From: Escherichia coli
GTDB lineage: Bacteria; Pseudomonadota; Gammaproteobacteria; Enterobacterales; Enterobacteriaceae
Strand: one strand, 5' to 3'
Length of the DNA: 64,000 nucleotides
NCBI RefSeq assembly: GCF_003334255.1
Contig: NZ_QOWU01000014.1
The position numbers and the translations under genes were made by a program. The notes beneath the pieces are model-generated. The model saw nothing but the letters and a program-made list of their open reading frames with translations. It was not told where the DNA came from and made no database searches. Shown piece after piece: positions 16,634 to 18,542 of the stretch. The stretch's first letter is position 1. Every line of letters begins with the position of its first letter.

Positions 16634-17458
16634 CTATTTCTTCTCTGTAATTTTTACACTGTTTTCCAACTGCTTGATGCTGACCTGCGGGGTCGGCAAC
16701 TCCTCAGGCATGGTTCCGCCAAGTTCCTGAATGGTTTGCCTCACCTTGCGACCCACGTCAAAGTGTGTGGTGTTTGCTTGCTGTTTTGAATTCACGCCAT
16801 CCCGCTTGAGTTTTTCTTCTGTTTGGGTAGCTCGAAAGAGATTAGCCGCCAGTTCTGTTGAACCCATATGATCCAGGATCTTCTGATTCTTTTTCAGCCC
16901 CTTCCGCTGATGAATAGCTTTCTGATCTAATCCACCATACAGCCCCCGGTAACCATGATTCTGAAATATGGCGAAATCGATAGCTGTCGCTCCCCCAGCT
17001 TGCTGCGCTGCCTCAACCAATTGTTTGTTATGTTCTTTCAATTCATTTCTCAGAAAAAGACGCTTTTCGTCTTCACGAAGTTGCCTGAAAGCTTCATCGT
17101 CAGCCAGCTCCTGCCGTCGGGTCTGGATAGCAAAATAAGTTTGCCCTGCCGCAATAACCGGTTTCGCAGGGTCGCCGTTTTGTACTACCAGGTAACAGGC
17201 ATAGCGGGAGAGATGAACATCTTCAAGTTCTCGTTGAGCCCCTGAACCTAATACAACCATTTTGGTGGTTTCAACGAAATGGTCAGATGCAGCTTGATTG
17301 CTGGCTTCGCACGCTTGAGTCGCGCGGGCCAGTACCTTTTGAAAATTGCGCCAGTCCCGATAATCCAGTAACGGTGCCAATTCTCTAGCTGACCAAAATT
17401 CTTGCCCTTCAGTGCCATAATGCCGTATTTCTTCAAAAGGTTGATGATGTTCGTTCAT
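16634..17458 (-). CDS. dinD: DNA damage-inducible protein D
   Basis: ORF 16634..17470 (274-278 aa); LexA box immediately upstream. Confidence 0.85.
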   Translation of the reverse strand: MNEHHQPFEEIRHYGTEGQEFWSARELAPLLDYRDWRNFQKVLARATQACEASNQAASDHFVETTKMVVLGSGAQRELEDVHLSRYACYLVVQNGDPAKPVIAAGQTYFAIQTRRQELADDEAFRQLREDEKRLFLRNELKEHNKQLVEAAQQAGGATAIDFAIFQNHGYRGLYGGLDQKAIHQRKGLKKNQKILDHMGSTELAANLFRATQTEEKLKRDGVNSKQQANTTHFDVGRKVRQTIQELGGTMPEELPTPQVSIKQLENSVKITEKK

Positions 17459-17503
17459 TGCCCACTCCATGTGATATCGATTGCAAAGAAAGTAAATCTG
17501 TAA

Positions 17504-17519
17504 CTGTATTTATATACAG
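17504..17519 (-). promoter_or_regulatory. LexA (SOS) box CTGTATTTATATACAG upstream of dinD
   Basis: Perfect CTG-N10-CAG palindrome with AT-rich centre about 35 nt upstream of dinD ORF start. Confidence 0.75.
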
Positions 17520-17613
17520 TTGTGAGTATCTCACGTTCTCAGTGTGCTGGGCAAAAAAACATCGCAAAATCTGGAGCAGGCACGCAAAACAGAATTGAAG
17601 TTGCGGGGAAGAA

Positions 17614-17645
17614 AAATGCCGCTCTGTTTGAGTGGGCGGCATTTG
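17614..17645 (-). terminator. yicC rho-independent terminator
   Basis: Hairpin gccgctc..gagtgggcggc with flanking T-run on minus strand downstream of yicC stop. Confidence 0.5.
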
Positions 17646-17678
17646 TGAAGGCTGAAAAGTAAGAATTAGTGTTACGAG

Positions 17679-18542
17679 TTACTCAATATTCTGAATCTGC
17701 TCGCGCATCTGCTCAATCAACACTTTCAGCTCGATGGCGGAGTTTGTCACTTCGGCATTGATAGATTTCGACGCAAGAGTGTTCGACTCGCGGTTGAATT
17801 CCTGCATCATAAAGTCCAGACGACGACCAACGGCTTCTTTTTTCTTCAGAATGTTGTAGGTCTCTTTGACATGCGCTTCCAGGCGGTCCAGTTCTTCGGC
17901 AACGTCAATTCGTTGTGCCAGCAGAACCAACTCCTGCTCCAGACGGTTGTTTTCCAACTGAACCTGAGCATCTTCCAGCTTCGCGACCAGACGCTCACGC
18001 TGCCATTGCAGGATTTCCGGCATATGGGCGCGGACTTTGACCACTTCGGCGGTGACGCCTTCCAGACGCTGCTCGATCAATGCTTTCAGTGCCTGACCTT
18101 CGGTTTCGCGCGCGACAATAAAGTCGTCCAGCGTACCATCCAGCGCCGCGAGAATTTCAGCGGCAATGGCGTCGAGATCCTGCTCCTGGGCTGCCATCAC
18201 GCCCGGCCAGCGCAGAATATCAACCGGGTTGATTTCCCCTTCGTCACTCTGCATTTTTACCCAGTTCGCGGCAGTTACCAGCTGTTTAGCCAGTTTTTCA
18301 TTGAGGATCAGCTCACCTTGTGCGCTAACATCTGGCTCATAGCGCAGGGTACATTCCACTTTACCGCGCGTCAGGCGAGAACGAATACGCTCGCGAACGA
18401 CAGGTTCAAGGCTACGGAACTGCTCCGGCAGACGAAAGTAAGTTTCCAGATAACGCTGGTTTACCGAGCGCATTTCCCAGGTTGCGCTCCCCCATTCACC
18501 CTTGATTTCACGCCGGGCGTAGGCGGTCATACTGCGGATCAT
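17679..18542 (-). CDS. yicC: YicC-family stress-induced protein
   Basis: 287 aa ORF MIRSMTAYARRE...; divergent from rph. Confidence 0.9.
   Translation of the reverse strand: MIRSMTAYARREIKGEWGSATWEMRSVNQRYLETYFRLPEQFRSLEPVVRERIRSRLTRGKVECTLRYEPDVSAQGELILNEKLAKQLVTAANWVKMQSDEGEINPVDILRWPGVMAAQEQDLDAIAAEILAALDGTLDDFIVARETEGQALKALIEQRLEGVTAEVVKVRAHMPEILQWQRERLVAKLEDAQVQLENNRLEQELVLLAQRIDVAEELDRLEAHVKETYNILKKKEAVGRRLDFMMQEFNRESNTLASKSINAEVTNSAIELKVLIEQMREQIQNIE

Follow-up and report, generated by a model that had tools for sequence, protein, structure and literature searches.

The long-known, very strong LexA operator of dinD in a non-K-12 strain of Escherichia coli

SOS regulation of dinD

In the SOS system, a LexA dimer represses transcription by binding to a palindromic operator, and after DNA damage the self-cleavage of LexA is triggered by RecA-ssDNA filaments (PMC6590174). 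A low heterology index (HI) of an operator stands for tight LexA binding (PMC6590174). Reviews draw their heterology indices and known SOS boxes from Lewis et al. 1994 and Fernandez de Henestrosa et al. 2000.

For dinD, this regulation has been followed by several experimental routes in E. coli K-12. The dinD box has a published HI of 2.2, and AZT induces the gene 9.8-fold, with a lexA dependence of 12-fold (lexA3 background, PMC11228462). Under ciprofloxacin, the log2 fold change of dinD climbs gradually to 4.47 (PMC11002266). RT-qPCR measurements on lexA(Def) and lexA3 mutants also confirmed the LexA dependence (PMC3009722). A dinD::lacZ fusion serves as a reporter of the SOS response and of DNA damage.

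Here, an E. coli stretch of 64,000 nucleotides (the window) was analysed. A sequence-only reading of this DNA had pointed to an SOS box upstream of a gene that it called dinD. The features of the region are collected in Table 1, and all positions are those of the window unless a comparison locus is named.

Table 1. Features of the dinD-yicC intergenic region and its flanking genes (window positions)
Feature	Position	Strand	Basis
dinD coding sequence, 274 aa, start MNEHHQPF, Bro-N domain	16634..17458	minus	NF008573, Pfam, RefSeq at the identical ATCC 8739 locus
Shine-Dalgarno sequence of dinD (GGAG)	17464..17467	minus	6 nt upstream of the ATG at 17458, read from the sequence
LexA operator (SOS box) of dinD	17502..17521	minus	Matrix score, simulations, identity to the published K-12 box
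Candidate sigma-70 promoter of dinD	17525..17554	minus	Best hexamer pair on the minus strand in 17440..17660; inferred
GTG-initiated ORF, 46 aa, likely a spurious call	17522..17662	plus	WP_000028342.1, hypothetical, few RefSeq E. coli genomes
Predicted intrinsic terminator hairpin of yicC	17614..17644	minus	Inverted repeat, folding, position in other genera
yicC, YicC/YloC family endoribonuclease, upstream of dinD	17679..18542	minus	TIGR00255, RefSeq

The dinD-yicC locus

The gene downstream of the box encodes the DNA damage-inducible protein D. Its product matches the NCBIfam equivalog NF008573 over the full length (residues 1-274) with 502.2 bits, well above the curated cutoff of 242, and is thereby a member of the DinD family. 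The Bro-N domain was located by Pfam at residues 10-105 (E 1e-10). RefSeq likewise names the gene dinD at loci that are 100% identical. The upstream neighbor scores 462 bits with TIGR00255 (cutoff: 167.5), and the gene order given by RefSeq for the locus is ligB, yicG, dinD, yicC, rph, pyrE and slmA. Over 17300..17800, many E. coli chromosomes, among them those of ATCC 8739 and E. coli C, match the window with 100% identity. The window is confirmed as a correctly read E. coli dinD-yicC locus.

The position of the dinD start codon determines how far away the box lies. The longest open reading frame begins at 17470 (MEWAMNEHH...), whereas the RefSeq start is found at 17458 (MNEHHQPF...). Both Pseudocitrobacter and Yersinia massiliensis retain the motif GGAGTG, which contains the Shine-Dalgarno sequence. 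Pseudocitrobacter also retains the downstream ATG, but shows AAG where the upstream in-frame ATG would stand. The annotated start at 17458, with its GGAG at 6 nt, is accepted here, so that the end of the LexA box lies 45 nt from the start codon. The distance of about 35 nt given in the sequence-only reading has to be corrected accordingly; only the ATG of the longest frame at 17470 lies at a comparable distance (33 nt).

The dinD coding sequence is mosaic within E. coli (window 16634..17426; L003 1931..2533). A common allele of 200 aa, present in many genomes, has a divergent N-terminal Bro-N part and is devoid of residues about 155-221 of the 274-aa form. It retains the promoter and the LexA box, and homology to the window returns at about 17426. 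This allele occurs in roughly 1700 genomes, a rough estimate obtained by subtracting counts from different searches.

The LexA box upstream of dinD

The 16-mer that had been put forward as SOS box, CTGTATTTATATACAG, is indeed present at 17504..17519 and forms the CTG-N10-CAG core of the dinD LexA box. On the plus strand it stands in the context ...gtaaCTGTATTTATATACAGttgtg..., and on the strand of dinD the complete 20-mer (17521..17502) reads AACTGTATATAAATACAGTT. An inverted-repeat search showed that the outer 8-nt arms of this 20-mer, AACTGTAT and ATACAGTT, form a fully complementary palindrome. Its palindromic core, CTGT-N8-ACAG, and the AT-rich (TA)n spacer are those of a gammaproteobacterial SOS box. 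Compared to the consensus TACTG(TA)5CAGTA, 15 of the 16 core positions agree and 17 of 20 overall. The box had been called perfect, and this holds for the invariant CTGT/ACAG parts and for the palindromic arms, but not for the consensus as a whole.

The identity of the box can be traced directly to the literature. The minus-strand 25-mer ACAACTGTATATAAATACAGTTACA is the same, in every letter, as the dinD site listed in Table 4 of PMC3009722. When the region was aligned to K-12 MG1655, neither the box nor its distance from the start codon differed; elsewhere in the intergenic region there are a few substitutions and one 1-nt indel. The interpretation given in the sequence-only reading is supported: the gene is dinD by NF008573, and the box equals the SOS box published for dinD. 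The claim that the gene is SOS-regulated agrees with the K-12 literature (PMC11228462, PMC11002266, PMC3009722). LexA dependence and induction by damage were established in K-12, and the identity of the operator suggests that both would hold in the present strain.

Overall, the 20-mer at 17502..17521 is almost certainly the LexA operator of E. coli dinD. This operator is long known and very strong, real and functional, but ordinary. The site adds no new biology, as dinD belongs to the textbook SOS genes and its promoter already serves as a reporter of DNA damage.

Promoter and proposed mechanism of repression

The best candidate for the dinD promoter directly abuts the LexA box. It consists of the -35 hexamer TTGCCC (17554..17549), an 18-nt spacer and the extended -10 element TGaGATACT (17533..17525; hexamer GATACT at 17530..17525), with 8 of 12 hexamer matches in addition to the TG extension. 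From this candidate, transcription is predicted to start near 17518, inside the box, and the box would then span about +1 to +16. A second, weaker hexamer pair, GTGAGA and TAAATA at a distance of 16 nt, has its -10 element inside the box. A sigma-70 promoter scan of both strands of 17300..17800 at a threshold of 9/12 found no promoter, and no experimentally mapped promoter or transcription start of dinD turned up in a literature search. We infer the exact hexamers and the transcription start from the sequence.

On the dinD strand, the LexA box is directly preceded by a further perfect palindrome, GTGAG-TAT-CTCAC (17522..17534), which overlaps with the candidate extended -10 element and is unchanged in all five E. 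coli lineages that were aligned.

The dinD promoter most likely lies directly upstream of the box and overlaps it. In the undamaged cell, a LexA dimer would sit on the two CTGT half-sites and thereby block RNA polymerase at this promoter; with either of the two promoter candidates, the polymerase would be occluded. Upon DNA damage, RecA filaments on single-stranded DNA would induce the self-cleavage of LexA, the operator would be vacated and dinD transcribed. Because the site is very close to the consensus, both tight repression and a large fold-induction would be expected.

As the site is palindromic and hence neutral in orientation, its main target could in principle also be a divergent transcript on the plus strand, running from about 17520 towards yicC. 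The product would then be either the 46-aa ORF of Table 1, which a few RefSeq genomes list as a hypothetical protein, or an antisense RNA to the 3' end of yicC. Precedents are available in the SOS-controlled small-toxin and antisense loci tisB/istR, dinQ and symE. However, the 46-aa ORF is omitted from most RefSeq annotations of the identical sequence. Rfam yields no match in 17300..17800 even at E<=1, i.e. no known RNA element in the intergenic region, and the above scan found nothing promoter-like on either strand. Moreover, the experimental LexA dependence of dinD itself suffices to explain the site. A divergent target is therefore very unlikely, and repression of dinD is retained as the function of the operator.

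The predicted yicC terminator

A terminator hairpin of yicC had also been noted in the same interval, and it was recovered on the minus strand. The stem AAAUGCCGC/GCGGCAUUU comprises 9 bp (arms 17644..17636 and 17622..17614) and encloses a loop of 13 nt. The U-tract UUUUUCUU covers 17618 to 17611 and overlaps the stem, whose last pairs are formed by the first U residues of the tract; after the stem comes UUCUU. The hairpin begins 34 nt past the yicC stop codon (17679..17681). Its predicted folding energy is -12.4 kcal/mol (z -4.2), and none of 200 shuffled sequences folds as well. Intrinsic terminators are recognized by this arrangement, a stable stem-loop with a U-tract past the stop codon of a gene of the same strand.

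Downstream of yicC, hairpins followed by a U-run occupy the corresponding position in Pseudocitrobacter (L010), Yersinia massiliensis (L009), Providencia vermicola (L012) and Morganella psychrotolerans (L019). Each was folded separately, and the stems of these four genera are unrelated in sequence. The recurrence of a hairpin at the same place with unrelated stems argues for a conserved terminator function, so that the predicted yicC terminator appears to be conserved in position across five genera. RNAalifold, applied to the yicC-downstream regions of the five genera, recovered only 3 consensus pairs; this is uninformative because the hairpin stems do not align in sequence. Similarly, a simple terminator scan of 17300..17800 (loops of 3-8 nt) returned no terminator, because the loop of the yicC hairpin measures 13 nt.

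The hairpin resembles typical Rho-independent terminators in its G+C-rich stem, its U-tract just past the stop codon and its A-tract/U-tract flanks. It differs from them by the unusually large loop and the short G+C core, with 5 G-C pairs in the 9-bp stem. Located about 95 nt upstream on the same strand, the terminator should insulate dinD from read-through out of yicC, in which case the LexA-controlled promoter would be the main input of dinD.

A perfect complementarity of 8 nt exists between the terminator loop (17630..17637) and the Shine-Dalgarno region of dinD (17460..17467). It was rejected as a meaningful pairing, as about 0.4 such pairs are expected by chance in 222 nt (estimate). In K-12 it is weakened by a 1-nt deletion in the loop, and it is probably due to chance.

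The box compared to chance expectation

The box was scored with a symmetrised LexA matrix built from the 17 other K-12 boxes in Table 4 of PMC3009722, with dinD left out. Scoring against a LexA position weight matrix had been proposed as a check, and its outcome is favorable: the full 20-mer reaches 25.06 bits, while the runner-up in the 64-kb window has 11.3. Windows simulated with a first-order Markov model (n = 300) had maxima with a mean of 12.0 bits (sd 2.2; largest: 20.5), and not one of them attained the score of the dinD box. In addition, an HI-like value was calculated with the Lewis formula from the 18-site table; functional sites have an HI below about 15. The dinD box has a value of 2.14 (2.95 in the leave-one-out calculation), close to the published 2.2, and the remaining window sites all have values of at least 12. 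The box thus combines the low HI and the high matrix score that characterize a LexA operator. From the matrix, simulation and HI scores it follows that the dinD box is the sole credible LexA site within the 64-kb window.

The bare CTG-N10-CAG pattern, which had been offered as textbook evidence, cannot carry this conclusion. With 26 occurrences in the window (expected: 12.5), it is too abundant to be diagnostic; the same number is reached in only one of 100 shuffles. This enrichment has nothing to do with LexA, as every site other than the dinD box scores at most 11.3 bits, and presumably reflects the composition of the coding sequences. The stricter CTGT-N8-ACAG is found twice (expected: 0.71), and 21 of 100 shuffles contain at least two.

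The idea that the box is a chance AT-rich palindrome not bound by LexA (e.g. part of a -10 element or an insertion-sequence target) could draw on the frequency of CTG-N10-CAG, on the non-significant count of CTGT-N8-ACAG and on the 227 genomes in which the AT-rich core served as an ISL3-family target, but with 25 bits attained in 0/300 simulated windows and the box identical to a published one with experimental support, it deserves practically no credence and is effectively refuted already by the published LexA-dependent expression.

Variation within E. coli

Among 5426 complete E. coli genomes, 4449 contain a 90-bp segment of the dinD promoter, 4173 of them at full length; about 18% of the complete genomes have no match to it. 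A diverged E. coli lineage (Z142-2, E57 and DA61218) has the box CTGTATATAAACACAG, which still scores 23.0 bits. The conservation of the box within E. coli does not discriminate, because the entire intergenic region is about 97% identical within the species.

In some strains, the box is interrupted. The ISL3-family element ISKox3 lies inside the dinD LexA box (L002 2676..4010, corresponding to window 17508..17515), with a target duplication of 8 bp, ATTTATAT. The exact junction occurs in 227 of the 5426 complete E. coli genomes (about 4%). The half-sites left by the insertion score only -0.2 bits, and judged from its position the element would separate dinD from its candidate promoter. The strains bearing ISKox3 are ready-made natural operator mutants.

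A second kind of rearrangement concerns the other end of the intergenic region. The homology of some E. coli genomes to the window ends exactly at the yicC stop codon (window 17678..17681; L004 1..5001), where an integrase-bearing element is inserted. Beyond this point, the comparison locus carries a tyrosine integrase with phage- or satellite-like genes (a Rha regulator and an Icd-like protein). Based on this junction, the 3' end of yicC looks like an integration hotspot.

Origin of the SOS control of dinD

DinD is a highly conserved gene that moves horizontally, and its family is widely distributed. Relatives with 63-84% identity occur in Chlamydiae, Chlorobi, Campylobacterota, Bacillota, Planctomycetes and many Proteobacteria. 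Members are also found in phages and satellites, such as the Campylobacter phage A11a (84%) and Streptococcus satellites (about 54%).

To compare their regulation, the 250 nt upstream of 80 dinD homologue loci of other species (L009-L088) were scanned with the LexA matrix, and at 79 of these 80 loci no strong LexA box was found. The single strong box belongs to Citrobacter werkmanii (L020 1444..1463, CACTGTAAAAATATCCAGTA, 23.1 bits). There, dinD is not located beside yicC, its reading frame is split and the flanks are unrelated to those of E. coli. This copy follows a pair of small heat-shock-protein-like ORFs, which, from their translations, we take to be ibpA/ibpB. The four syntenic yicC-dinD loci in other Enterobacterales (the same four that carry a hairpin after yicC; L009, L010, L012 and L019) have no LexA box, with scores between -3.2 and 2.5 bits. 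The Gram-positive-type LexA motif GAAC-N4-GTTC was observed upstream of one dinD homologue only (L044).

The cross-species comparison gives no support for an ancient LexA site. Among the loci examined, LexA control of dinD looks like a trait of Escherichia and not of the family as a whole. We lean slightly towards the view that this control is a recent, lineage-specific gain, in which a mobile Bro-N gene was wired into the SOS regulon via an operator-bearing promoter segment, and that part of the E. coli population is now losing the operator again. A lineage-specific operator in a mobile gene family, together with its disruption by an insertion sequence, offers a modestly interesting case of regulon turnover in evolution.

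Comparison with known LexA operators

The closest described system is the dinD (pcsA) SOS box of E. coli K-12 in the classical LexA regulon, which shares with the window the same 25-mer, gene, neighbors and spacing to the start codon. The operator itself is without difference; the distinction is that the window comes from a non-K-12 strain.

Among the other high-affinity operators of E. coli, those of umuDC, sbmC, recN and tisB/istR-2 have the TACTG(TA)5CAGTA-type palindrome in common with the dinD box. Their matrix scores are in the same range: 27.7 bits for sbmC and umuD, 24.6 for recN and 25.1-25.2 for dinD. As with other high-affinity E. coli LexA operators, the dinD box is found within about 50 nt of the start codon. 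Several LexA boxes are carried by recN and lexA, whereas dinD has one box only. The candidate promoter hexamers of dinD are weak.
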